Positions 11,428-33,434 of a stretch of 64,000 nt of DNA are shown here, piece by piece (positions within the stretch are counted from its first letter, which is position 1; each line of letters opens with the position of its first letter). The notes below the pieces were generated by a model that saw only the letters and a list, made by a program, of their open reading frames with translations, made no database searches and was not told the DNA's origin. The position numbers and the translations under genes were made by a program. Origin of the DNA: Candidatus Woesebacteria bacterium (GTDB lineage Bacteria; Patescibacteriota; Microgenomatia; UBA8517); NCBI GenBank assembly GCA_016700095.1, contig CP065002.1:716175-780174 (forward strand), read 5' to 3'.

Positions 11428-12693
11428 TTAATGTTTCAACAATTCTTGTTCGATAGTAAGAAGGCGATTGTATTTTTCAACTCTCTCCCCTCTTGCCGGT
11501 GCTCCAAATTTAACAAAGTCAGCACCCACCCCGACCGCAAAATCTGCGATGAACCAGTCATTTGTTTCCCCCGATCTGTGAGACACGATAACCTTCCAAC
11601 CTGCGTCTCTGGTTTGCTTAATTACTTTTAGTGTTTCCGTAACTGTCCCAATCTGATTTGGTTTAACAAGTATTGCATCACACGCTTTTTCCGATATGGC
11701 TTTTGCAACACGTTGGGGATTGGTTGCAAGTAAATCATCACCGACAATCGTAACCTGATCTTTCATTTCAGCATACAATTTCTTCCAGCTGTCCCACGCA
11801 TCTTCATGAAATGCGTCCTCTAAAATCGCCAGGTGATACTGATTATTTATACTTTTGTAATATTCCATCAGTCCTTCGTCTTTAAGGGGTGTCGATTTGT
11901 CCCGTATGGTGTATTCTCCGTTTTTATAAAATACGCTAGCTGCCACATCAAGTCCGAGAAATACATCTCGACCAAGCGAATAGTTGGTTTCCTTAATTGA
12001 TTCGACAACCACTTCGAGAGCATCGGCATTCGTAAATAGATTTGGAGCATAGCCACCTTCATCACCAACCGAATGCACTGCACCTCGTCGATCTAAATTT
12101 TTACCAAGAGTCATATATATTTCCGATCCTGTTCGCAGAGCTTCTGTGTATGATTTGCTCGACGCGGGAATTACCTGAAACTCCTGAAAATCCAAATTTC
12201 CGGAGCCGTGCAGTCCACCATTAACCATGTTAAATATAGGTGAAGGTACGTGGACTACGGGAGATAATCCAACTCCTTGTGCAAGCGAAGCAATCCACCG
12301 ATAGACAGTCGTGTTGTTGGCGTAAGCCGCCACTTTAGCAACAACTTGCGACACGGCGAGAATAGCATTAGATCCCATTTTCGATTTATTTGACGAGCCA
12401 TCAAGAGCAATGAGTTTGTCATCAATGGCGTTTTGATTCTCGACAGGCATACCGCTTAAACTTGGTCCTAAAATGTCGTTAATATTTTTGACAGCTTTCA
12501 AAACACCCTTGCCCAAAAAACGTTTTTCGTCCAGATCGCGCATTTCAACTGCCTCATGTGTCCCTGTTGATACACCCGCGGGTACACTGGTAACCGCAAT
12601 ATGACCTGTCCCCAACTGGCACGCCGCCTCGACGGTAGGAACACCACGCGAATCAAGAATTTCTCGTGCCCATATTTTTGTTATTGTAGACAT
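11428..12693 (-). CDS. eno: Enolase (copy 1, within the glycolytic cluster)
   Basis: ILDSRGVPTVE..., SHRSGETND, KPNQIGTVTE. Metal and catalytic residues conserved. Confidence 0.95.
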   Translation of the reverse strand: MSTITKIWAREILDSRGVPTVEAACQLGTGHIAVTSVPAGVSTGTHEAVEMRDLDEKRFLGKGVLKAVKNINDILGPSLSGMPVENQNAIDDKLIALDGSSNKSKMGSNAILAVSQVVAKVAAYANNTTVYRWIASLAQGVGLSPVVHVPSPIFNMVNGGLHGSGNLDFQEFQVIPASSKSYTEALRTGSEIYMTLGKNLDRRGAVHSVGDEGGYAPNLFTNADALEVVVESIKETNYSLGRDVFLGLDVAASVFYKNGEYTIRDKSTPLKDEGLMEYYKSINNQYHLAILEDAFHEDAWDSWKKLYAEMKDQVTIVGDDLLATNPQRVAKAISEKACDAILVKPNQIGTVTETLKVIKQTRDAGWKVIVSHRSGETNDWFIADFAVGVGADFVKFGAPARGERVEKYNRLLTIEQELLKH

Positions 12694-12888
12694 ATTATTT
12701 ATCCAATAATCGAATTTGTTATTATATGCGTATTAATGCACTTATCGCTTCCTATAACGTAATAAATTTAACCCACAACCTCACGCTTGTCGTACCATTG
12801 CTGATTCCGCGTACAATGTGTTACTTTGGTCGAAACAAAAAACCCACAAAAGTGGGCAATTACAACGCAATAAATCATAGAATTCGAG

Positions 12889-15180
12889 TTACTTCCCGAC
12901 AGCCAACTTTCTTTCTGCTTCGTGAATAACATTTCTCACCCTATCGACAGCATCAGGATTAACAGAAATGCTCGTTATTCCGTATCTAATTAGTTCTTCA
13001 ACTAAATCATCATACGTACTTGGCGCTTGTCCACAAATAGACGAACTTACTCCGCGTTTATTGCAAGCTTTTATTACTCTTTTAAACGCCCATGAAATTG
13101 CAGGAGATCTCTCGTCGAAATCGGCGGCAACCGTTTCATTATCACGGTCCGTACCGGTAACAAGCATCGTCAGATCATTGGAACCAAACGATATGCCATC
13201 AACACCAACATCCAAAAACTTATCAATAAGAATTACATTTATCGGAATTTCAACCATTAGCCAAAACTTAAAACTCGTATCTTCAAACAAGCCGTTGGAT
13301 GCGACAAGCCGTCGTACTTTTGCCAATTCTTCAGGAGATCTAACAAAGGGGATTTCAAGCCAAAGATTTTTGTGCATTTTGCGAACCTCTTTGATAGCTT
13401 GTAACTCCAAATTGAAAACTTCAGGTTGTGCAATATAGCGATATGCACCCCTAAATCCCAACATCGGATTTGGTTCTTGTGGCTCCCAAGACTCTCCTCC
13501 CTGAAGCGACCTATATTCATTAGTCTTGAAATCGGTTGCGCGATAAATAATTGGGCGTGTTCCGAAAGCAGAACAAAACGTAGACATGCCCTTGATAAGA
13601 TTTTCAATAAATACATCCTGCTTTTTTAGTTTAATTGCTTCTTTGGGATGAATACCGATGTTGGCAATCATAAACTCCGCACGAAGAAGGCCAACTCCAT
13701 CGACGTTGAGTTTAGCACCTTTTTTTGCCATCTCAACCTCGGCTAAATTTACATACACCTTAGTAGCCGTGCGTCCCTTGTAGTAATTTTTACTTTCTTC
13801 TTGTGCTTTGCTGTGTATAACTTTCGTACCAACATAGATATTCCCGGTCGTTCCATCAACCGTAACAATGTCATTTTCTTTGAGCTTTTTGGTTGCGTCG
13901 TTGGTACCGACCACACACGGAATACCCAATTCCCTTGAGACTATTGCAGCATGTGATGTCATCCCTCCTTTGTCGGTCACAATTGCACTCGCCTTTTTCA
14001 TGGCAGGCACATAATCAGGTGAAGTCATCTCGGCAACCAACACGTCTCCTTCTTTAACTTTATTAATTTCTTTAGGGCTTTTCAGAATTTTAGCCGGCCC
14101 CGTTCCTACTCCAGGGCTAGCCGAAGAACCCGAGAGAATGGGCAAATCACCATGCTTAACAGTTTCACCTCCTGCGAGTTTTGTCGATTTATCATCATGT
14201 GATTTTTTATTTTTATCGGGTATCGTCGTTACCGGCCTTGTTTGCGTTATAAATAAGTCATTTTTTTCTTTTGCCCATTCGATATCTTGAGGGAAGTAAT
14301 AATGCTCTTGCAATTTATTTGCCAGTTTAGCCAAAGCTACAACCTCGTCGTCTGATATTTTTTGCTTATCTTTAATTTTTGCGGGTACTTCTTGCTCGAT
14401 CGTTTTGGATCCTATTTTAATCAATCTGACATTTTGTTCGGAGACTTCTTTGGACAAAATTGCATAGGTATCTTTTTGTACTACGTATCTATCGGGTAAA
14501 ACCGATCCTTGAACGATTAATTCACCCAATCCCCACACTGCCTCGATAATAATTCGATCTTTGTCATTTGTGACAGGATCAATTGAAAACATTACACCGC
14601 TCACATCTGACTGGACCATTTTCTGGACAATGACAGAAATTTTTACCTGATCATTTCTTATTTTATTTTGTTTACGATAAAAGATTGCCCGAGCCGTAAA
14701 AAGCGATGCCCAACATTCCCTGACAGCAATTAGTAAATTGGTATCTCCTTTGATATTTAAAAATGTCGCTTGTTGTCCTGCAAATGATGCACCCGGTAAA
14801 TCTTCGGCGGTTGCCGATGACCTAACTGCAACTAATTGTTTTTTGAATCTCGGTGATAATTTCTTATAAGCTCTTTTTACCTCAAAGCCGATTTCATCCG
14901 GAATTGGTGCACGAATAATCAGATCCTGAATTTTTTTAGATTGCCTTTGGAGACTGTCGGAATCATCGACATCAAGGTCTTTGAGAAAAAGATCAATCTG
15001 ATCTGCTAAATTGTTATGCGCCAAAAACATTTCGTATGAAGCTACGGTTATCGCAAATCCACCGGGAACGGGAAACTTCGCTTGAGTCATCTCACCAAGA
15101 TTAGCGCCCTTTCCCCCAACCATGGGTAGATCGTTTTTATCAATATCTCTAAAAAAGGCAATAAGTGGTTTAGTCGACAT
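12889..15180 (-). CDS. ppsA: Phosphoenolpyruvate synthase / pyruvate, water dikinase (PpsA-like)
   Basis: 763 aa. N-terminal ATP-grasp region (PMVGGKGANLGEM). Phospho-His swivel domain (GGMTSHAAIVSRELGIPCVVG). C-terminal PEP-utilising TIM barrel. Length fits PpsA rather than PPDK. Confidence 0.75.
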   Translation of the reverse strand: MSTKPLIAFFRDIDKNDLPMVGGKGANLGEMTQAKFPVPGGFAITVASYEMFLAHNNLADQIDLFLKDLDVDDSDSLQRQSKKIQDLIIRAPIPDEIGFEVKRAYKKLSPRFKKQLVAVRSSATAEDLPGASFAGQQATFLNIKGDTNLLIAVRECWASLFTARAIFYRKQNKIRNDQVKISVIVQKMVQSDVSGVMFSIDPVTNDKDRIIIEAVWGLGELIVQGSVLPDRYVVQKDTYAILSKEVSEQNVRLIKIGSKTIEQEVPAKIKDKQKISDDEVVALAKLANKLQEHYYFPQDIEWAKEKNDLFITQTRPVTTIPDKNKKSHDDKSTKLAGGETVKHGDLPILSGSSASPGVGTGPAKILKSPKEINKVKEGDVLVAEMTSPDYVPAMKKASAIVTDKGGMTSHAAIVSRELGIPCVVGTNDATKKLKENDIVTVDGTTGNIYVGTKVIHSKAQEESKNYYKGRTATKVYVNLAEVEMAKKGAKLNVDGVGLLRAEFMIANIGIHPKEAIKLKKQDVFIENLIKGMSTFCSAFGTRPIIYRATDFKTNEYRSLQGGESWEPQEPNPMLGFRGAYRYIAQPEVFNLELQAIKEVRKMHKNLWLEIPFVRSPEELAKVRRLVASNGLFEDTSFKFWLMVEIPINVILIDKFLDVGVDGISFGSNDLTMLVTGTDRDNETVAADFDERSPAISWAFKRVIKACNKRGVSSSICGQAPSTYDDLVEELIRYGITSISVNPDAVDRVRNVIHEAERKLAVGK

Positions 15181-21772: not shown

Positions 21773-22408
21773 CTATAGTTTATTTTGCCCTTGAGCTTCG
21801 AATCTAAACTCCACCTCATCCCAATTAACTATCTTCCACCATACTGCTACGTAGTCGTTTCGACGATTTTGATATTTCAAATAGTAAGCATGTTCCCATA
21901 CATCCAATCCCAGTAATGGTACATGCCTATATAGATAAGGGCTATTTTGGAATGAATGTCTTTTTATGTAGAGTTTCCTGTCTTCCCCCATGACAAGAAA
22001 TACCCATCCGCTACCAAATAGACTTAAAGCCTTAGCGGTAAATTCTTCCTTAAATTTATCAAAACTTCCAAAGGTGGACGTAAGTATCTTTTTTACTTCA
22101 CCTTTGGGGTCTACCCCACCAGGACAAAGAGTTTGCCAGAACATTGAATGATTCGCATGACCACCGGCGTTATTGATAACTGTTTGCCGAATATTATCAG
22201 GTACTTTTTCAACCTGCATCAGAAGTTCCTCAACCGTCAATTTTTCCAAATTAGTTACTCCCTCAAGTGCTTTATTCAAATTACTTACGTAACTTGCATG
22301 ATGCTTGGTGTAGTGTATTTCCATCGTCAGCGCGTCAATATACGGCTCAAGTGCGGCGTATGAATATCTTAGTTGTGGTAGTTCAAATATCATGTATAAA
22401 AAAAGCAA
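21773..22408 (-). CDS. sodA: Fe/Mn superoxide dismutase
   Basis: HYTKHHASYV and DVWEHAYYLKYQNRR metal-ligand motifs. Confidence 0.9.
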   Translation of the reverse strand: MLFLYMIFELPQLRYSYAALEPYIDALTMEIHYTKHHASYVSNLNKALEGVTNLEKLTVEELLMQVEKVPDNIRQTVINNAGGHANHSMFWQTLCPGGVDPKGEVKKILTSTFGSFDKFKEEFTAKALSLFGSGWVFLVMGEDRKLYIKRHSFQNSPYLYRHVPLLGLDVWEHAYYLKYQNRRNDYVAVWWKIVNWDEVEFRFEAQGQNKL

Positions 22409-22487
22409 ACTAATTATTTTATCTCGACATCCGACAAATAATCTCTATTAAGCTAATTATTTAAAGGCATTTTAAGACCTCGAAAAT

Positions 22488-22751
22488 TTACTTTTGTCCA
22501 AATATTCCCGGAATAATTCTTATTAAAACAATATAGAGAATTATCATTAGAACCAACGCTCCACCTGTTGGAATATACATCACGCGACCTTCCCTCCTTC
22601 TGTAAATATCGCCGGGGACAATCATCGGTTGTTTTGTGCGTTGAGAAAGATAATACATCGCACCAACCGACAACACATACAGAAGTCCCATTATTTGAAG
22701 TGTTTTTAAAAATCCGGCCATATCAACTAAGCTTAAAGGATAAACATTCAT
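22488..22751 (-). CDS. DUF2905-family small membrane protein
   Basis: 87 aa with two TM segments and the conserved PGDIYRRREGRVMYIPTGGAL core. Confidence 0.5.
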   Translation of the reverse strand: MNVYPLSLVDMAGFLKTLQIMGLLYVLSVGAMYYLSQRTKQPMIVPGDIYRRREGRVMYIPTGGALVLMIILYIVLIRIIPGIFGQK

Positions 22752-22914: not shown

Positions 22915-23238
22915 GTGCCAGTATTAGTTATGGATAATCAAACCATGCCCCCAAGTGATCCGCCTATGGTAACTAGTCCATTTGTCCAACCTGTAACGTC
23001 TGGTGCCACACAAGCTACGGTTACTCCTTCGGTCTTAAATCCCCCCATCCCACAACCGTCGATTCCACAAGCACCCCAAGGTGAAGTCGCAACTTCCGAA
23101 CATCCAAGTGTTGCCATGACCACTCAAGCCAAAAAACAAACCTCAAAATTCACTATATTTATCGTGTTTCTCATCATCGTTGTCTTACTAATTTGGGTAG
23201 GTGTCGGATATTTGTATTTTTTCCCTAGTGCCAAGTAA
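22915..23238 (+). CDS. Proline-rich membrane-anchored hypothetical protein
   Basis: Pro/Thr/Gln-rich N-terminus, then a single C-terminal TM segment (FTIFIVFLIIVVLLIWVGVGYLYFF). First plus-strand gene of the accessory island. Confidence 0.35.
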   Translation: MPVLVMDNQTMPPSDPPMVTSPFVQPVTSGATQATVTPSVLNPPIPQPSIPQAPQGEVATSEHPSVAMTTQAKKQTSKFTIFIVFLIIVVLLIWVGVGYLYFFPSAK

Positions 23239-23519: not shown

Positions 23520-24680
23520 ATGAAGAAAATTGTTACAAGTATTTTTGTAATTGCAGTAACATTAATTTTGACTGTTAATTTAACCTCCGCATTCTTCTCC
23601 GACACTGAAACTTCCACCAACAATAAATTTGTCTCGGGCGCAATCGACCTGCTTATCAATGGTACGAACGATACGGTGGGGATCGTAAATATTGCCGATC
23701 TCAAACCGGGTGACAATATTGACGTAAACAAAGACTTGTTTATTAATTCAAATCCCGCGTATGTCTGGATGCACATTTTTGATGTAACTTCACAACAAGG
23801 CGAGCAAACCGAACCCGAGGATTTGGAAGAGTCGCAAAACGGTATTAAAAGCGATATTCAAAATTATCTTACATACGATTTATCTATCGATCGAAACGGC
23901 GACGAAATTGTCGACGAAGTAATCGTAGACCCAACTCACAACAACCTTCTTCCCGATATGGTTTCATGTTGGATTCCACTCGGAGAACTCCCGGGACTTA
24001 CTAATGTAAATCTTACCCAGAGCTTCCATTTTGATTCCACAGTCACCAATTGGGCACAGGGAGACATCCTTAATTTCTCTGAGGAGTTTTACGCAGTTCA
24101 AGTCCGCAATAACCCTAATGCATCACCTCCTGATAACGGTACAGGCAGAGTATGGGATCCCAATCTTAGAAAGTGCGTTGATTGCACACCAGGAGTTACT
24201 TATGCATCGAGTGTCATTTCCTCGATTCAAGGCAAACGCAATAATGGATCAGATGTTTTGGTAAATAGAAGTGTCACAGAAAACGTATTGGGCATTCCAG
24301 ACAGTAACGACTTAAATAATCCCAAATGGTATTCACTTGGATTTGGTGGACAAATAATTGTTAAATTCAATTTCCCTGTCAGTGATGGAAATGGAGTTGA
24401 CCTTTCATTCCATGAAATTACTGGTGGCAGAGATTCTTATCCTTTGGAAAAAGCCAACGTTTACGTAAGTAACGACAATGTTACTTACGAATTTGCAGGG
24501 ACAATAACAAGTGAACCCGGCGGCGACGGTATTTATTACTTGGATATTTCATCAACAAGTTTTTCCTCGATTCAATACGTTAAAGTGGTTGACTCAACTG
24601 ATCCATTGTTACACATATCGACCGCCGATGGTTACGACCTGGATGCGATCGACGCCGTATATGGAACCTGTACTAACTAG
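23520..24680 (+). CDS. TasA/camelysin-family (peptidase M73-like) secreted protein with SipW-cognate signal peptide, paralog 1
   Basis: N-terminus MKKIVTSIFVIAVTLILTVNLTSAFFSDTETSTNNKFVSGAIDLLINGTN...ADLKPGDNIDV. It parallels B. subtilis TasA (AFNDIKSKDATFASGTLDL...NLKPGDKL). Confidence 0.7.
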   Translation: MKKIVTSIFVIAVTLILTVNLTSAFFSDTETSTNNKFVSGAIDLLINGTNDTVGIVNIADLKPGDNIDVNKDLFINSNPAYVWMHIFDVTSQQGEQTEPEDLEESQNGIKSDIQNYLTYDLSIDRNGDEIVDEVIVDPTHNNLLPDMVSCWIPLGELPGLTNVNLTQSFHFDSTVTNWAQGDILNFSEEFYAVQVRNNPNASPPDNGTGRVWDPNLRKCVDCTPGVTYASSVISSIQGKRNNGSDVLVNRSVTENVLGIPDSNDLNNPKWYSLGFGGQIIVKFNFPVSDGNGVDLSFHEITGGRDSYPLEKANVYVSNDNVTYEFAGTITSEPGGDGIYYLDISSTSFSSIQYVKVVDSTDPLLHISTADGYDLDAIDAVYGTCTN

Positions 24681-26533: not shown

Positions 26534-27370
26534 ATGTATAAAAACTATATTAAAAAACTCCTTCAGGTAATCCTCTTTATATCAGGGGTTTTGGTCTTTT
26601 TGACTGGGCTGTATATCGATCGGGTTTTCACCTTTGAGATTCTTGACGGACTAAGTACGAAAAATGTTCCCGTCAATTTAAATAAGATAAAAAGTACTAC
26701 TCCCCTACTTTTTACTGTTTATTCGGGCTCTATGGAGCCGGCTATAAAAACAGCAAGTGTAATTGTCTCTAAACCACAATCTAATTACGTACAAGGCGAC
26801 ATAGTTACCTTTACACCTACAAGTAGTATGGGAAACGTCGTAACGCACAGGATTGTTGCCAAGGAAAATGTTAATAGTCCTGTCTACAAAACGGCAGGCG
26901 ATGCCAACCAAACAATTGACCCCTGGACTATCGATAACTCCCAAATAAAGGGGAAAGTCGTTTTAACAGTACCCTTGGCCGGATACGTCACGAATTTTGC
27001 CAAAACGCCAAGCGGATTTATTCTTCTTATTATCGTTCCTGCGACAATTGTGATTTACGAAGAAATCAAATCACTCCTTGTTGCTTTCGTAAACGAATTT
27101 AAGAAAAGATTTTTTAAATCCAAAAAGCTAAATCCTATATATATGTCAAATTTCACGATCAAGAAAAGCTCGTCCATACTTTTGCCTTTTGTCTTTTTAA
27201 CAGTACTGCTTACTTCAGCTGTTGCGACGTATTCCGTACTTTCTGATCGCGAAGTAAATGTCGGTAACACTTTTAGTGTTAACACCCAAGGACAACTTGA
27301 AGATTCCCTAGAAGCATTGCCTACTTCTACATTTGCAACCGAAAATTCGTTAGGTGAAAACTTAGACTAA
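26534..27370 (+). CDS. sipW: SipW/Sec11-type signal peptidase I (S26B) with extended C-terminal region
   Basis: N-terminal TM, catalytic-Ser box FTVYSGSMEP, GDIVTF, VTHRIV (catalytic His), TAGDANQTID, IKGKVVLTVPLAGY. After a C-proximal TM helix the protein continues about 90 aa with a second hydrophobic segment. Confidence 0.8.
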   Translation: MYKNYIKKLLQVILFISGVLVFLTGLYIDRVFTFEILDGLSTKNVPVNLNKIKSTTPLLFTVYSGSMEPAIKTASVIVSKPQSNYVQGDIVTFTPTSSMGNVVTHRIVAKENVNSPVYKTAGDANQTIDPWTIDNSQIKGKVVLTVPLAGYVTNFAKTPSGFILLIIVPATIVIYEEIKSLLVAFVNEFKKRFFKSKKLNPIYMSNFTIKKSSSILLPFVFLTVLLTSAVATYSVLSDREVNVGNTFSVNTQGQLEDSLEALPTSTFATENSLGENLD

Positions 27371-27371
27371 C

Positions 27372-28370
27372 ATGATAGGAACAAATATAAAAATATTACT
27401 ACTCTCTGCCGTTTTAGCTGCGTGTAGTTACCCTGTTATCAAAATTCAACAATCAGTAAGTGCTTCACACCACAACTCAGGATCGGGTATTGTTGTCGAT
27501 TTTGGAGTGGCACACGGCGAACCCGTATTTAATATGGATGACTTTAAACCAGGCGACTGCGTCGAACGAAGAATTAATGTTAACAACGTATCAGGCAAAA
27601 CGAAAAAGATTTTTATCAAAACAAAAAATATCGTTGATGACGCTTCCCTTTCTTCAGTGCTGTCTATCGTAATACAAAGTAACAATAATTTTCTTTTTGG
27701 TTATCCAAACCCCAAAACATTAACGGACTTTTATCACCAGTCTACCCCTGATGGTATTTATCTCCTTAATCTAACTAAAAACACTAAAGCAGATTTCGAT
27801 ATAAAAATATGTTTCGATGAAGATGCCGGAAATACATACCAATTAACCCAAACTCAGTTTGATCTAACCTTTTTTGCACAAGACAAAGATACACCCGATC
27901 CCGAAATCGACTTACCACATGAGTGTCAACATCTGGCGGGAATAATTACAAAAGTTATGCACGGTACTCCCAACAATGACACAATTAACGGAACATCCGC
28001 CAACGAACTAATTTATTCATACGATGGAAATGACAAAATTTATCCCGGCAGCGGTTCCGATTGCGTTGTAACCGGAAATGGCAACAATGTGATTATGGAT
28101 GTTTCGGGAAACGATGTTTTTGTAACCGGAAATGGAAATGACAGTGTTAAAGCAGGAAGCGGAAATGACACGATTTATTCGGGTGGAGGAAACGACATTC
28201 TTGAAGGAGAAAGCGGAAATGATATTGTCTACGGCCAAGAAGGAGATGACTTAATGAAAGGCGGTTCGGGAAACGACAAACTAACAGGAGATGACGGTAA
28301 CGACACGGCTTTTGGAGATTCCGGCTTTGACACTTGTAGCGCAGAAAACAAAAACTCATGTGAAATTTAG
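27372..28370 (+). CDS. Lipoprotein with TasA/camelysin-like N-domain and C-terminal RTX-type calcium-binding (GGxGxD) repeats
   Basis: Signal plus lipobox (LLLSAVLAACSY). MDDFKPGDCVERRINVNNVSG parallels the LKPGD segment of the two upstream paralogs. C-terminus has at least 8 tandem nonapeptide-like repeats (GNGNDSVKAGSGNDTIYSGGGNDILEGESGNDIVYGQEGDDLMKGGSGNDKLTGDDGND). Confidence 0.6.
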   Translation: MIGTNIKILLLSAVLAACSYPVIKIQQSVSASHHNSGSGIVVDFGVAHGEPVFNMDDFKPGDCVERRINVNNVSGKTKKIFIKTKNIVDDASLSSVLSIVIQSNNNFLFGYPNPKTLTDFYHQSTPDGIYLLNLTKNTKADFDIKICFDEDAGNTYQLTQTQFDLTFFAQDKDTPDPEIDLPHECQHLAGIITKVMHGTPNNDTINGTSANELIYSYDGNDKIYPGSGSDCVVTGNGNNVIMDVSGNDVFVTGNGNDSVKAGSGNDTIYSGGGNDILEGESGNDIVYGQEGDDLMKGGSGNDKLTGDDGNDTAFGDSGFDTCSAENKNSCEI

Positions 28371-28396: not shown

Positions 28397-29449
28397 ATGA
28401 AAAAGTACATCCTACCATCAATAGTGTTTTGTATTTTCTTATTATTTTTACTATCGATTTTATTCACTAAACCGCAAAAATCCTTACCCAAACAGCCTCT
28501 TGATACGCCGTCGTCATATGTTGCTACTGATTTTAGTGTTTCGGGCTGGTTACCTTGGTGGGACTTTGATAAAGGTGCAGTCGAAATAAGCGAAAATAAA
28601 AATACTTTCACTTCGGTTTCACCGTTTATTTACGAGTTAAACGATGATTTAACCATCACTTCCCGAGACCAAACAGGGAAGACAGCGTCGATTCTCAAAA
28701 ACCATCCGGAGCTGGAAATCATACCTTCGGTAAGTAACAATTTTAAGGGAGAAAATGTGTCAAAAATAATCAACTCCACCGAGTTATCGGAAAATCATAT
28801 ATCACAGCTTGTCGACCTTGCTTTGCCATACGATGGAATAGAACTTAATTACGAACAACTCCTGGCTGAGGACAAAAACGCGTATACCAAGTTTATCGAC
28901 ACCCTTTCCAAAAAACTACATGCAGATAACAAAAAATTGGCAATAACGCTTCACCCAAAAACTACCGATAAAGGTGTATGGCATGCAACGGCGGCGCAAG
29001 ATTGGGAAAAACTGGCGCAAAGTGTCGATTATATGAGAATTATGACATACGACTATCACTGGAACGGGTCAGTAGCAGGTCCGATCGCCCCCATCGACTG
29101 GTTACATGATGTGACCGAATATGCAAATAAGACAATACCTAAAGAAAAGCGCATCCTGGGTATCGGACTTTACGCCTACGATTGGCAAATCGGAACCACC
29201 CAAGGCGATGATCTAACCTTAAACGAGGTAGCAAAAATATTAAACAAAGAAGGCGTGGAAAAATTCTATGATGAAAATTTTCAATCTCCATATCTAACAT
29301 ACACCAAGGACGGAATACATCGGATTATATGGTATGAAAATACAAAAAGTTTTGCAGCCAAACTCAAACTTGCACACGAGAACTACGCAGGCATAGCTCT
29401 ATGGAAAATGGGTGACATTCCTGAAACTTTTTACCTGACTTTAAAGTAA
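28397..29449 (+). CDS. Glycoside hydrolase family 18-like protein with degenerate catalytic motif, N-terminal TM/signal anchor
   Basis: GH18 beta-4 motif present as YDGIELNYE where DGxDxDWE is expected. The catalytic Glu is kept, the middle Asp is Asn, and the second Asp is Glu. MTYDYHW matches the GH18 MxYD motif. Confidence 0.65.
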   Translation: MKKYILPSIVFCIFLLFLLSILFTKPQKSLPKQPLDTPSSYVATDFSVSGWLPWWDFDKGAVEISENKNTFTSVSPFIYELNDDLTITSRDQTGKTASILKNHPELEIIPSVSNNFKGENVSKIINSTELSENHISQLVDLALPYDGIELNYEQLLAEDKNAYTKFIDTLSKKLHADNKKLAITLHPKTTDKGVWHATAAQDWEKLAQSVDYMRIMTYDYHWNGSVAGPIAPIDWLHDVTEYANKTIPKEKRILGIGLYAYDWQIGTTQGDDLTLNEVAKILNKEGVEKFYDENFQSPYLTYTKDGIHRIIWYENTKSFAAKLKLAHENYAGIALWKMGDIPETFYLTLK

Positions 29450-29565: not shown

Positions 29566-30357
29566 ATGAAAGTACTGGGATTTACACTATTGGTATTCAT
29601 GATGGCACTAACTGTTGCCAGTGTTACGGTAACCCGATTGCATGACAACAATGTCGATCCGGTTAATCTTTCTACAAGTGAAGTGTTAGGTGAACCATCT
29701 ACCAGAGTCTCATTTGAAAAACACAAGATTTCATTTAATGGTGAATCTTACGAGGTTGCATTGATTAATGGAGTTAACCCGGACGAAACCGGTCTTTTTT
29801 CAAATTTAGAGGAACCGGAATCGGCAATTAACATTATTGAGGAGAATAACTGTAGCGCACTGGTTAATGCTGGTTTTTATACCACCAATAATCAACCTAT
29901 CGGGCAATTTGTGTCAAATTATAAAACTATCAAAAACACTACGCAAAGCGAGTTGTTTAACGGGTATTTTTCCATCAACGATTTCGGTACACCACGAATT
30001 ACGCAAAATGTTCCTTCTGATAATTTACGGCTGTCTGTCCAGAGCGGACCTTTGTTAATTGTTAATGATGAATTCCAAAAGCTGTCGATAAGAAACGACA
30101 AAAATGCTCGCCGTATCGTCGTAGCCGTAACCGGAGAGAACGACATTGTATTTATCGCTATCTACGATGCTTTCTCCAAGCTACTTGGACCTAAACTTGC
30201 CGATTTACCCGTAGTGTTAACAGAAATTGAAAATACTTCGCTTTATGACTTCGCCGATGCGCTTAACCTGGATGGCGGTTCTGCTTCAGCTTTTTATATC
30301 GACAATTTTAAACTTCCCGAAAGCTCGCCTATCGGAAGCTATTTTTGTATAAATTAA
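29566..30357 (+). CDS. Phosphodiester glycosidase-like (DUF2233/NAGPA-like) secreted protein
   Basis: Signal peptide. ALVNAGFY near the N-terminus and ALNLDGGSAS near the C-terminus resemble DUF2233 motifs. Recognised from memory only. Confidence 0.45.
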   Translation: MKVLGFTLLVFMMALTVASVTVTRLHDNNVDPVNLSTSEVLGEPSTRVSFEKHKISFNGESYEVALINGVNPDETGLFSNLEEPESAINIIEENNCSALVNAGFYTTNNQPIGQFVSNYKTIKNTTQSELFNGYFSINDFGTPRITQNVPSDNLRLSVQSGPLLIVNDEFQKLSIRNDKNARRIVVAVTGENDIVFIAIYDAFSKLLGPKLADLPVVLTEIENTSLYDFADALNLDGGSASAFYIDNFKLPESSPIGSYFCIN

Positions 30358-30983
30358 TCAACCTTTAGTAAGTAGATCCTGAGCCCCTTTTTGTCGGTAC
30401 TTATGTCCAATGTATGCATGCCCGCTTCCTCATCGTTTACAAGTTCATAATAATTTCTTTTTAAAATCATAGTAGGCACTTCACGTCCGTTGGTAAGTTT
30501 TTGAGCCACTACAACATCTTCGCCGTCTTTTTTAATCGTTAGTGTATTTCCTACATCGCTTTCTGCATCTATTAATACTCTTTTTCCTGTGTATCTAAGT
30601 GACAACGCTCCACCCGTATCCAAAGACGCTACAAAATAATCGCTATACTCCCACACTCCTTTGAGGTATATTTTATTTTCAGACATCATACTTGCAAGTT
30701 TTATTGATTCATTTATGAATTCCGGTCGATTGTCCGGATCAGAAGTTACGGTTCCCAGAAACAAAGTAACAGGTTTAGAGTCACAACATGTTTTTTTCGA
30801 CGTGACAATTTCCTTGCGAGAAATTTCAGGCAGAGGTTGTGAATCTCTTGTGAAGTTTTTTTCACGAATATAAAGAAATACCGTAAGACTGGTAAACAGT
30901 ATTATTGTTCCATAATTAATAAATCTTTTTCTTTTTGTATTTATTGCCATTTGTTTTCTCAGCATCCCTAACCTGTTTTTCAT
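30354..30983 (-). CDS. Membrane-anchored hypothetical protein
   Basis: N-terminal TM (TIILFTSLTVFLYI), no recognisable domain. The ORF's 5' end overlaps the upstream Zincin_1 gene, so the true start is probably internal, at M12 (30950) or a non-ATG codon. Confidence 0.4.
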   Translation of the reverse strand: MKNRLGMLRKQMAINTKRKRFINYGTIILFTSLTVFLYIREKNFTRDSQPLPEISRKEIVTSKKTCCDSKPVTLFLGTVTSDPDNRPEFINESIKLASMMSENKIYLKGVWEYSDYFVASLDTGGALSLRYTGKRVLIDAESDVGNTLTIKKDGEDVVVAQKLTNGREVPTMILKRNYYELVNDEEAGMHTLDISTDKKGLRIYLLKVD

Positions 30984-31305
30984 TCATCCCAAAATGATGT
31001 GCGATTTCATGAATTAAAGTATCACGTACTGTTTCTTCAACACTTTTAGTTTTTGAAAACATCAATATCGGTATTTTAAATATGGTTATTTTGTCGGGCA
31101 ATTTAACCATATATCTTGACCCTCGTGTTGTCGGTACACCCTCGTATAAACCCAAAAGTAAACCTCGAGCATTTACGCTGTCTAATTGCTTTTTGGTTGG
31201 AAAGTCTTGATATGTTATCGAGACATTTTCTATATTTTTTCTAAATTCCCCAGGAATACTTTCCAGCGCTTTGTTTAATATTTCTTCAAACTTATCGTCG
31301 GACAT
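30916..31305 (-). CDS. Zincin_1 (DUF1025) family putative metallopeptidase
   Basis: Conserved TLIHEIAHHFGMNEKQV motif (HExxHxxG) in a 129-aa protein. Lys-rich C-terminus. Confidence 0.55.
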   Translation of the reverse strand: MSDDKFEEILNKALESIPGEFRKNIENVSITYQDFPTKKQLDSVNARGLLLGLYEGVPTTRGSRYMVKLPDKITIFKIPILMFSKTKSVEETVRDTLIHEIAHHFGMNEKQVRDAEKTNGNKYKKKKIY

Positions 31306-31340
31306 GTATTAATATACCATGAAGAATCTATCAAAATAAG

Positions 31341-33434
31341 TTATTGCGAAAACACCAAACTATTGATTTCGGTCCAAGTTAATTCATCAACAACTATCAA
31401 CTTGTCATCACCAACAATGTACATAAGATCGTTAATATATACGGCACGTTTGGCATTAATGGGTGAAGTTTTGAATATTGTCTTTAGGTTGTCTTGGTAA
31501 GAAATAATATAACCGCTACCTGAGGCGGGCAAGAAAAATACTTTGTGTTTATCGTCAAGTAAAAAGGCGTGATGTGTATTTTGAATGTCGGACCAATACT
31601 CATCTAGTGAAAGCACACTTTTCTCAACCGGAAGGGCGGGGTTTGATACATCAAACATACTTGCTTTGACTTTTGAACCATCCATACCAATACCCAATAC
31701 TAAATTATCTCCGATCGGATGTAAGTAAGACGAATAACCCGGTATCTTTAATTCACCGACCATTGTTGGTTTTTTGGCATCCGATAAATCCACTACATAA
31801 AACGGATCTATTTGTTTAAACGTAACCAGGTAACCTTTGTCACCAACAAACCTTGCCGAATATATTCTTTCTGATAAACCAAGATCTTTAATACTTCCCG
31901 TAATTTTTAAACTGCTATCCAAAACATACACATCGTTTACACTTTCCGTATTCCCCCAGGGAATACCCATCCTACCACCAATCGTTGTCGCAACCCGTAA
32001 ATTATTCTGATATTCGTCGATGGAAAACTGATTCAAAATAGTTCCGGGAACGCTACCTGTTTGAGTTACTTCTAAATCTGGAAATGCAAATTTTACAATT
32101 CCAGTCCTTTCAAATTCTCTTATGTGATCACGGGTGTAGATTTCGGATTTACTTTCAATTTCTTTCTGGAATTTGTCGCGATCCGATTCTTTTAAAGACA
32201 TTCTGTAGGCATCCAAAATGACATAAACTTCCTGCATTTTTGAAGAATCACTTATTTCATAACTATTTAATTGTGTTAGCTTTTTAATGACATCGTAAGG
32301 TAAAATATTTGCTTCATTAATGAGAAAATCCATCACAAATTGAACGACGTTTTCATTGTATGTGTATGTCAAAAATACTCCGTTTGGAGAAATATACGTT
32401 ATCGCTTGGTAAGATGGTGCTATAAACGACGCGTGAGTACTAACACTTCCGTCATCCGGATTAATCTTTATCACTGTGTAAATGTTATCTGCACTAACCG
32501 GATAAATCGGATGATATATCGTATCGCACGTAACCATAACTCCTTGCGATTCTTTGGTTACATAAAAGGGGCAGGGTAAATTCTGGTCGACAGCTTTCTG
32601 TGTGACGACATACAGTTTTCCATCAAATAGCCTGGTTGATTGAACATATGCTCCCTGATCAAGTGCTAGTTGCCACTTTTGGTTCGGCAATTGTGGATTA
32701 CTTACATCTATTCCCGTTATTTCCTGTGAGGCAATTACGATTAAATTATTATCATCAAGAAGTAAATTGCCGTTATTATTTATAAAACCGACTTCCGCCA
32801 ATTCTTCGGATGGAAATGAATCAATAATCCGAGTTCCGATACGCCTCACGGGAGGCCGAATCATACCAGAGGAACCAATAGAACTTGGTTGCGATTGTTC
32901 AACATTGCTCACATCGTCGACAATACCTGACCTTAGCTCAAATGGCTCGTATAAGTAGCCGTACTCTTGTGAGTAAAAAATAGACTTACCGTCAGTTTTA
33001 ATAATATCGGGTTCATCGAGAGCCGCAATTTGAACATTGGTTTGTGATACCCTATCTGGTGATTGAATCTCTGAAATCGTGGAATCCATCTGATCCCCAA
33101 ATCCGACTGACGGAGCTTGTAATTTAAGTGAGTTTAAGTCAGCTAATTCCCTAACCCCGTTGGTTAGCATGCTTGTATTTATGCTCGCTTTTTGTAAATA
33201 ACCGATAAAGTCATCCTTTGATTTAAAAGCTTCAACCTTCATCTCGTCTGCCGGCTTTGATGTGTCATCATGTTGGCCAAATGGCGAAATTTGGCTGTTT
33301 GATAACTTGTAAATAAAAAATATACCTATAACCAAAAGAAGCACGCCTGAGAGGGCGAAAATATATTTTCCAAAGGGTCTTGGTGCGTCCATTTTCGATC
33401 CGAACGTTTCTATCTCGGGGTCATTTGGTGTCAT
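31341..33434 (-). CDS. Secreted/anchored beta-propeller domain protein (COG4880 / Beta_propel family)
   Basis: N-terminal TM. TNVQIAALDEPDIIKTDGKSIFY matches the family's opening motif (TNvQv.GVDEaDivKtDG..iY). 697 aa with repeated blade-like segments. Confidence 0.55.
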   Translation of the reverse strand: MTPNDPEIETFGSKMDAPRPFGKYIFALSGVLLLVIGIFFIYKLSNSQISPFGQHDDTSKPADEMKVEAFKSKDDFIGYLQKASINTSMLTNGVRELADLNSLKLQAPSVGFGDQMDSTISEIQSPDRVSQTNVQIAALDEPDIIKTDGKSIFYSQEYGYLYEPFELRSGIVDDVSNVEQSQPSSIGSSGMIRPPVRRIGTRIIDSFPSEELAEVGFINNNGNLLLDDNNLIVIASQEITGIDVSNPQLPNQKWQLALDQGAYVQSTRLFDGKLYVVTQKAVDQNLPCPFYVTKESQGVMVTCDTIYHPIYPVSADNIYTVIKINPDDGSVSTHASFIAPSYQAITYISPNGVFLTYTYNENVVQFVMDFLINEANILPYDVIKKLTQLNSYEISDSSKMQEVYVILDAYRMSLKESDRDKFQKEIESKSEIYTRDHIREFERTGIVKFAFPDLEVTQTGSVPGTILNQFSIDEYQNNLRVATTIGGRMGIPWGNTESVNDVYVLDSSLKITGSIKDLGLSERIYSARFVGDKGYLVTFKQIDPFYVVDLSDAKKPTMVGELKIPGYSSYLHPIGDNLVLGIGMDGSKVKASMFDVSNPALPVEKSVLSLDEYWSDIQNTHHAFLLDDKHKVFFLPASGSGYIISYQDNLKTIFKTSPINAKRAVYINDLMYIVGDDKLIVVDELTWTEINSLVFSQ

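Follow-up and report, generated by a model that had tools for sequence, protein, structure and literature searches.

A donor-less, TasA-related RTX protein as a candidate end subunit of a TasA-type fibre in Candidatus Woesebacteria

Introduction

Bacillus biofilms have TasA-type fibres as their main protein scaffold. These fibres were recently shown to grow by donor-strand exchange; we know of no account of how such fibres end or acquire their length. Bacteria of the candidate phyla radiation (CPR) live on other cells, and little is understood about the appendages on their surface. Here we analyse a gene from a Candidatus Woesebacteria bacterium (CPR, Microgenomates), located in a 64,000-nucleotide stretch of contig CP065002.1 (assembly GCA_016700095.1, positions 716,175 to 780,174 of the forward strand), the whole of which is hereafter called the window. 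The gene stands directly behind that of a SipW-type signal peptidase, and its product, identical (100%) to the NCBI entry 'hypothetical protein IPM62_03770' of Candidatus Woesebacteria on a 1.27-Mb contig, joins a TasA-related N-terminal domain (N-domain) to a block of RTX nonapeptide repeats; we refer to it as the RTX protein. It belongs to a large and uncharacterised family. An original prediction, made from the sequence, described it as a lipoprotein in a SipW operon and suggested a Ca2+-dependent anchor or cap for the filament. Our analysis suggests that the RTX protein is not a toxin, that it is probably not a lipoprotein and that it is most likely the chain-ending piece of a biofilm-type fibre. 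A donor-less paralogue beside SipW and a donor-only partner would be a concrete candidate for a fibre terminator or tip.

Comparison with described systems

In Bacillus subtilis TasA, the next subunit is completed by a donor strand made of residues 28–38, the first to follow the SipW cut; residues 48–61 self-complement the monomer, and TapA was proposed as the supplier of the first strand (Bohning et al., 2022, PMC9674648). The TapA-SipW-TasA system, and likewise Bacillus cereus CalY/TasA and Clostridium perfringens BsaA, resembles the locus described here in three respects: a dedicated SipW of the archaeal/endoplasmic reticulum (ER) type inside the operon, subunits with a PF12389-type fold, a SipW-cognate signal and an N-terminal donor-strand motif, and an accessory protein whose donor-like N-terminus is attached to a domain not of the TasA type, this protein being TapA in that system and a protein with a donor motif and a lamin-tail domain (LTD) in this one. 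It differs in that SipW is here often fused to the donor-motif+LTD gene, in that the host belongs to the CPR and in that the RTX protein falls below the Pfam threshold. No acceptor-only or donor-less subunit, RTX beta-roll or LTD was found described for the Bacillus and Clostridium systems in the literature that we searched.

The archaeal bundling pili AbpA/AbpB (Pyrobaculum), CanA and AbpX are also formed by subunits of the TasA superfamily that polymerise by donor-strand exchange, and AbpB has been put forward as the source of the first strand and as the carrier of adhesin-like distal domains (PMC9245690). AbpB thus gives a donor strand, whereas the RTX protein is donor-less; the AbpA/AbpB-type systems have no SipW, and no RTX is reported for them in those parts of the source that are used here. 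TasA homologues and PF12389 were already placed in Patescibacteria (PMC9245690), and beyond this occurrence our literature searches on RTX or camelysin proteins and on lipoprotein signal peptidases of the CPR, and on SipW together with lamin-tail domains, yielded nothing relevant. Nor did we find literature describing a fusion of a TasA-like domain with RTX, a TasA paralogue without a donor strand or a fusion of SipW with an LTD. The FimH and PapG tip adhesins of chaperone-usher pili offer an analogy, since they too combine a pilin-type acceptor domain that lacks a donor strand of its own with a functional domain and occur as one copy at the fibre end. They share no homology with the system described here, which has no chaperone or usher and no known outer membrane, and in which the functional domain is a C-terminal beta-roll and not a lectin.

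N-terminal domain

The original prediction assigned a TasA-like module to the protein and quoted the strings DFKPGD and NNVSG, which we located at residues 57–62 and 71–75. The Pfam family PF12389 (Peptidase_M73, camelysin/TasA family) matches residues 42–92 only and stays below its gathering threshold (18.2 bits, E 0.0024, against 22.5 bits); it matches 6 of 21 relatives at E <= 0.01, the best with 1.9e-5. When the profile of the family N-domain was aligned by hhalign with the TasA-like proteins of the same operons, a probability of 91% and an E-value of 9.8e-7 were obtained over 114 columns. The alignment spans the PGD motif (residues 60–62 of the RTX protein) to the common N-x-x-Q...F-x-x-x-F motif, present here as N-x-Y-Q...F-x-L-x-F-x-A-Q (residues 154–170). 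As judged from this profile similarity, the N-domain appears to be a diverged paralogue of the two TasA-like subunits, whose genes lie in the second and third place upstream. We retained the label 'TasA-like' because of this homology to the operon's own TasA-like genes, in the sense of a diverged relative that lies below the Pfam threshold.

On the structural side the original assignment stands less firmly. In a Foldseek search of the PDB with the full AlphaFold2 model, TasA (5of1_B) was matched with probability 1.0, a TMt of 0.50 and a root-mean-square deviation (rmsd) of 3.7 Å, but with an E-value of 0.04; it had the best rmsd and the highest TMt among the beta-sandwich matches. At the level of models, the fold evidence for TasA specifically is therefore weak.

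Signal peptide and missing donor strand

The model TIGR04088 (cognate_SipW) recognises both canonical neighbours of the RTX protein and 0 of 21 family members (E <= 0.1), and a donor motif of the AFFSD type is present in 1 of the best 150 family representatives. The canonical subunits of the window would be cut between TSA and FFSDTETSTNNKFVSGAIDL and between TQA and FFSDSETSTGNKFVAGDIDL. In the RTX protein, the predicted signal peptide consists of the n-region MIGTNIK, the h-region ILLLSAVLAACSYPVI and the c-region KIQQSVSA, and its predicted cut, after V29-S30-A31, falls on the AxA position of the family. There, the -1 residue before the conserved [V/A/F]-G-D-L-x-V is Ala in 101 of 114 family members and the -3 residue is V, A, I, T or S in 108 of the 114, with -2 being variable (Y, Q, R, E, K and others); on these frequencies the AxA before GDL is a classical (-3,-1) signal-peptidase signature. 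No consistent small-x-small (AxA) site was observed in the family alignment at the end of the hydrophobic core. From this pattern of conservation we infer that cleavage has shifted downstream by about 13 residues, that the old donor segment is discarded with the signal peptide and that the mature RTX protein begins at the equivalent of TasA residue ~41. Since it has no donor motif and the AxA lies directly before the fold, the mature protein should accept a strand but not give one. We consider it moderately probable, on the strength of these alignments, that the RTX protein is such an acceptor-only subunit.

The original prediction read the same N-terminus as that of a lipoprotein. In that case Lgt and LspA would process the LAAC motif, Cys18 would tether the protein to the cytoplasmic membrane and the acceptor-only domain would hold the fibre end on the cell. 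In fact, the PROSITE-type lipobox rule is matched (K7, hydrophobic residues 8–14, LAAC and Cys18; MIGTNIK-ILLLSAV-LAAC), Cys18 is the sole cysteine of the protein without a partner, lying inside the signal peptide, and an acceptor-only subunit would serve as an anchor as well as a cap. Nevertheless, the lipobox cysteine is kept in 0 of 20 close homologues, and the lipobox occurs in 2 of the 150 family representatives, one of which is the RTX protein itself. The pattern also matches one cytoplasmic-looking, non-secreted-looking open reading frame (ORF) of the window, so that alone it is weak evidence, and the family-wide AxA further downstream predicts the loss of the whole segment that holds Cys18. 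A lipid-anchored base of the fibre thus seems unlikely, and lipid anchoring of the RTX protein in general unlikely or, at best, doubtful.

SipW cassette and putative donor-only partner

Membership of a SipW operon, which the original prediction had pointed out, is conserved in two sets of loci. The first consists of the contigs of six full-length homologues (31–44% identical) and of one LTD-type relative (Logan/NCBI/ENA). All seven have the same order, with one or two TasA-like genes, a SipW::LTD gene coding for 350–460 amino acid residues and the homologue directly downstream, which often overlaps the preceding SipW::LTD gene by 4–7 nucleotides. A scan of one genome per species, followed by a motif-based ORF analysis, yielded as the second set 12 further loci from Daviesbacteria, Levybacteria/Levyibacteriota, Amesbacteria and several metagenome-assembled genomes (MAGs). 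In these the RTX-family gene follows the donor-motif+LTD gene and/or SipW, often overlapping it or 1 nucleotide apart, and a SipW motif is recognisable in 7 of the 12.

The cassette therefore has the order TasA-like subunit(s), SipW, donor-motif+LTD and RTX protein, and in every locus examined the last gene is located directly downstream of SipW, or of a donor-motif+LTD gene that lies between them or is fused to SipW. In its unfused form, the cassette comprises a TasA-like subunit of ~190–210 residues with the donor motif at residue 26, a SipW of ~185–220 residues, the LTD protein and the N-domain-RTX gene. The separate LTD protein (200–255 residues) is composed of a signal, the motif AFF(T/S)D..N.T.NTF and the lamin-tail domain, and is too short for a TasA fold.

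In the window, the RTX gene starts 1 nucleotide past the TAA stop codon of the SipW ORF (TIGR02228, 82.9 bits against a cut-off of 51.85). This ORF has an in-frame C-terminal extension (residues 204–278, nucleotides 27143–27367) with a third hydrophobic segment, followed by the donor-strand-like, SipW-cognate motif TYSVLSDREVNVGNTF. Alignment of the SipW genes indicates that the window copy keeps the hydrophobic segment and TYSVLSDREVNVGNTF, ends ~30 residues further on and has lost the LTD; by this alignment, the extension represents a stub of the gene that encodes 'donor motif + LTD' in the related loci. About 45 residues of the stub remain past its predicted cut site. In the relatives with a lamin-tail domain after the motif, this part is either fused to SipW (350–460 residues; the SipW::LTD loci compared were L001:6820-8007, L002:3162-4220 and L018:1095-2311) or a separate gene of 200–255 residues directly after SipW. 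In the fused form a signal peptidase is joined to its own apparent substrate. Of the two canonical subunits upstream of SipW, the first matches PF12389 (E 6e-8) and, weakly, TIGR04088, and the second matches TIGR04088 with 22.8 bits (cut-off 19). We are highly confident of both the domain architecture of the RTX protein and its place in this operon.

The arrangement of the genes also lends itself to another explanation, in which the RTX protein would not cap a fibre but form, with the LTD protein, a 1:1 surface complex independent of the TasA-like polymers. The donor-motif+LTD and RTX genes are always adjacent, often with a 4-nucleotide overlap or 1 nucleotide apart, as for stoichiometric partners, and some family members carry the LTD themselves. 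However, in the window the LTD has been lost, yet the RTX gene and both genes of the TasA-like type remain intact; nearly all cassettes contain canonical TasA-like genes, and one initiator and one terminator per fibre would predict equimolar expression as well. Such a heterodimer appears rather improbable.

Proposed role at the fibre end

We hypothesized that the RTX protein is exported by Sec and serves as a minor subunit in an extracellular fibre of the TasA type on the Woesebacteria (CPR/Microgenomates) cell. In the canonical members, cleavage right after the hydrophobic core would expose the AFFSDxExS..N.F donor strand, while in the RTX family, with a degenerate donor segment and a later cut, the acceptor groove would be kept and there would be no strand to donate. 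The donor strand left free on the last TasA-like subunit would then invade the RTX protein and, with no further subunit recruited, the fibre would be terminated or capped. According to the published TasA mechanism, a donor-only subunit can start a chain and an acceptor-only subunit can only end one, which would make the RTX protein a terminal subunit; at the opposite end, the donor-motif+LTD protein, of which the window has a stub fused to SipW, would act like TapA as a donor-only initiator. The beta-roll would fold once it meets Ca2+ outside the cell, with the two invariant cysteine pairs holding it to the linker helix and closing its C-terminal end, and, stiffened by Ca2+ at the fibre end, it could act as a rigid tip for adhesion, cross-linking or fibre-fibre and fibre-cell contacts. 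Given the attachment lifestyle of CPR bacteria, an end subunit with a Ca2+-dependent beta-roll or a lamin-tail domain is a plausible attachment device.

Of the two functions originally proposed, anchor or cap, the cap is thus backed by the missing donor-strand/SipW-cognate motif, and the lipid anchor is doubtful. We see about an even chance that the RTX protein ends or caps a fibre built by donor-strand exchange, as an acceptor-only subunit that displays a disulfide-capped Ca2+ beta-roll. A wider scheme can be put forward more tentatively, with somewhat less than an even chance of being correct, in which Microgenomates fibres have two coupled end-pieces, a donor-only initiator (LTD, sometimes SipW-fused) and an acceptor-only terminator with an RTX or LTD tip, the latter made by a shifted cleavage site. 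If this scheme is right, the RTX protein would be the first terminator or cap to be described for a fibre of the TasA type, with the shift of a signal-peptide cut site as its suggested evolutionary route, and would put the RTX beta-roll to a new use, Sec-dependent and disulfide-capped, in a bacterium not known to have an outer membrane.

Several observations weigh against a role as fibre end. We know of no experimental demonstration of fibre formation by TasA-like proteins of the CPR. The cleavage site is inferred from conservation only, the RTX protein has a 6-residue insertion after V29-S30-A31, and the 8–16 residues between the hydrophobic core and the AxA are a long distance for signal peptidase I; with a cut at the core instead, the mature protein would keep a diverged N-terminal segment of about the length of a donor strand. 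The RTX protein has a pattern-perfect lipobox, and the tight coupling of its gene to the donor-motif+LTD gene fits a plain 1:1 heterodimer equally well. In addition, a Foldseek search of the PDB with the N-domain alone returned generic beta-sandwiches and donor-strand pilins (GH123 N-domain, FimG, CfaB, CanA, Sulfolobus 0406 thread and PapA; E ~1e-3 to 1e-2, TM <= 0.45), with TasA absent from the top 50; the similarity to FimG, PapA and CfaB is generic only (TM 0.36–0.45). The N-domain profile retrieved no TasA from the PDB sequences (best E 0.3).

Such a generic beta-sandwich is also what a stand-alone Ca2+-binding structural or adhesive protein could have, secreted or held at the surface, with an Ig-like stalk and no strand exchange, whose linkage to the operon would reflect shared SipW processing only. 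RTX beta-rolls are found in many unrelated secreted proteins, and the AlphaFold2 model of the N-domain as a monomer is compact and confident without a partner (predicted local distance difference test, pLDDT, 90.5; predicted template modelling score, pTM, 0.83). However, TasA itself is stable and self-complemented as a monomer (PMC9674648), so that a confident model without a partner does not help to decide here. The specific profile similarity of the N-domain to its TasA-like neighbours, including the PGD and N-x-x-Q...F-x-x-x-F motifs, and a gene order strictly kept across Woese-, Davies-, Levy- and Amesbacteria speak against a stand-alone protein, which we regard as a rather unlikely possibility when compared with the fibre-end subunit.

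RTX beta-roll

The tandem repeats noticed in the original prediction are genuine RTX repeats, with a HemolysinCabind (PF00353) score of 88.5 bits (E 2.4e-25), far above the gathering cut-off of 23 bits, and PF00353 matches all 21 family members. A phmmer search against the PDB sequences retrieved CyaA (E 4e-31), followed by hemolysin, Pseudomonas lipase, alkaline protease/serralysin and AlgE epimerases. The earlier count of about eight repeats was too low, as residues 198–323 form 14 consecutive nonapeptides in a single, unbroken 9-residue register. Position 4 is Gly in 12 of the 14 repeats and position 6 is Asp in 12 (Glu or Asn in the other two); position 8 is a bulky hydrophobic residue, again in 12, with Ala and Cys in the last two. 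The full-length AlphaFold2 model, built from a 21-sequence alignment (mean pLDDT 90.1), has a short strand every 9 residues between residues 204 and 323, the block reaching a pLDDT of 94–98, and a Foldseek search with this model also matched the RTX blocks of CyaA. A parallel beta-roll of ~7 turns is thus predicted, in agreement with the structure that was originally expected, and Ca2+ binding is putative, the liganding position 6 being Asp in all but two repeats.

Two invariant cysteine pairs bracket the roll. The protein contains seven cysteines, four of which (C185, C231, C322 and C330) are invariant among the close homologues, and C63 and C147 co-occur within one subfamily. Cys185, in the linker helix, likely has the invariant Cys231 of the fourth RTX repeat as its disulfide partner. 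Together with Cys322, the C-terminal cap corresponds to the family-conserved ending D-T-C-x-A-E-x4-C-E-[LI].

The repeats are also the one feature, and the only one, that speaks for type I secretion of the protein as a classical RTX toxin or exoprotein, as the automatic name 'Ca2+-binding RTX toxin-like protein' given to some homologues would imply. The RTX protein shares with type I substrates (CyaA block V, serralysin/AprA, Pseudomonas lipase, AlgE) the GGxGxDxUx nonapeptides and a predicted parallel beta-roll with 18 residues per turn. It differs from them in its N-terminal, hydrophobic signal peptide, its two invariant cysteine pairs, its size of 332 residues and the lack of a toxin or enzyme domain. 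Only 9 residues follow the last repeat, in a conserved, Cys-capped end that leaves no room for the ~50–60-residue C-terminal signal of type I secretion, and none of the NCBIfam models for toxins and proteases comes anywhere near its cut-off (for example, 69.7 against 1000 bits). Genes for the exporter components, i.e. ATP-binding cassette (ABC) transporter, membrane fusion protein (MFP) and outer membrane factor (OMF; TolC), were found neither in the seven related, Pfam-annotated loci nor among the 10 largest not-yet-scanned ORFs of the window, which code for PolX, enolase, iPGM, ClpB, PPDK, UvrA/B, a transglutaminase-like protein and a beta-propeller protein. We know of no outer membrane in CPR bacteria. 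Type I export is effectively refuted by the N-terminal signal, the short tail and the missing exporter genes in the loci and ORFs scanned, and the contrast that the original prediction drew with type I-secreted RTX proteins was right in spirit.

Family size and modularity

A search of 1.84 billion representatives at 50% identity with the N-domain profile retrieved 3723 proteins at E <= 1e-3, 1431 at E <= 1e-10 and 145 at E <= 1e-30, and in nearly all of these matches the N-domain starts at residue 30–40. Among the best 150 representatives, at least three RTX motifs are present in 83, the ending C-x(4-9)-C-E in 78 and AxA-x-G-D/N-L in 100. The combination of N-domain and RTX repeats therefore occurs in at least 83 distinct 50%-identity clusters and is not unique to the protein of the window. 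The public records call these proteins 'hypothetical' or 'Ca2+-binding RTX toxin-like protein', and the analysis corrects the misleading automatic 'RTX toxin-like' names for a family of thousands of sequence clusters.

A lamin-tail domain (PF00932) takes the place of the RTX repeats at the C-terminus in all ten long non-RTX members tested (P0130, P0174, P0195, P0196, P0200, P0215, P0238, P0245, P0251 and P0264). At one locus (L007:7001-8299), a gene of this N-domain-LTD type follows a SipW::LTD gene. As either LTD or RTX repeats are found on the same N-domain, this domain seems to be a carrier for alternative display modules, which fits a 'carrier domain + display domain' design.

Features and neighbouring genes

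The coordinates of the features are collected in Table 1.

Table 1. Parts of the RTX gene and other genes of the cassette (nucleotide positions in the window; aa, amino acid residues).
Feature	Position	Strand	Basis
RTX gene, whole, 332 aa, ATG start	27372..28370	+	ORF list
Predicted signal peptide, aa 1-31	27372..27464	+	AlphaFold2 helix 2-27, family (-3,-1) statistics, alignments
LAAC lipobox-like pattern, Cys18, aa 15-18	27414..27425	+	Pattern match, not kept in family
N-domain, aa 32-182, beta-sandwich	27465..27917	+	PF12389 sub-threshold, hhalign, AlphaFold2
Linker helix, aa 183-197, Cys185 in conserved LP-x-E-C	27918..27962	+	Alignment, AlphaFold2
Predicted RTX beta-roll, aa 198-323, 14 nonapeptides, ~7 turns	27963..28340	+	Pfam, register, AlphaFold2, phmmer
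C-terminal cap AENKNSCEI, aa 324-332	28341..28367	+	Homologue alignment
Canonical TasA-like subunit 1, 386 aa, SipW-cognate signal, donor strand AFFSDTETSTNNKF aa 24-37, extra C-terminal domain	23520..24680	+	
Canonical TasA-like subunit 2, 543 aa, SipW-cognate signal, donor strand AFFSDSETSTGNKF, C-terminal NosD-like right-handed beta-helix	24759..26390	+	
SipW-type (archaeal/ER-type) signal peptidase I, 278 aa, catalytic SGSMEP aa 64-69	26534..27370	+	

The linker helix begins with the string HECQH (residues 183–187, nucleotides 27918–27932), which has the form HExxH, and a camelysin-like metalloprotease was considered on this account. It was rejected, as the first His is kept in 0 of 20 homologues and only the E and the C are conserved; on this comparison the string is a chance HExxH and there is no camelysin-type active site.

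The extra C-terminal domains of the two canonical subunits are large, one being weakly similar to discoidin (F5_F8-type-C) domains and the other NosD-like (TIGR04247, E 5e-11), and the fibre subunits of the window would be decorated by them. Minimal TasA-like subunits of ~195 residues are found in the Levybacteria relatives.

Genes for a GH18 glycosidase and a NAGPA-type phosphodiester glycosidase are located downstream of the RTX gene (28397–29449 and 29566–30357), and GH18, NAGPA-type and PIG-L deacetylase genes recur beside the cassette in several genomes (L001:9233-10201 and 12405-13196; L004:10467-11567). These recurrent neighbours may tie glycan processing to the surface structure. Just upstream of the cassette, in the window (22915–23238) and in its closest syntenic relative (L001:2988-3554), lies a gene for a Pro/Thr/Ser-rich protein with one C-terminal transmembrane segment, which gave no Pfam match.

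Synteny with L001 extends beyond the cassette (21773–22751 and 30354–33434) and includes genes for a Fe/Mn superoxide dismutase, DUF2905, a thioredoxin-like protein, Zincin_1 and a 697-residue beta-propeller protein, which argues for a chromosomal, vertically inherited cassette and not a mobile island. The G+C content of the window is 36–40% throughout. A full CPR-type cassette, with proteins 40–48% identical to those of Microgenomates, is also present in MAG records labelled 'uncultured Gammaproteobacteria bacterium' (TPA_asm; L010 and L013-L018), and this label is probably wrong.

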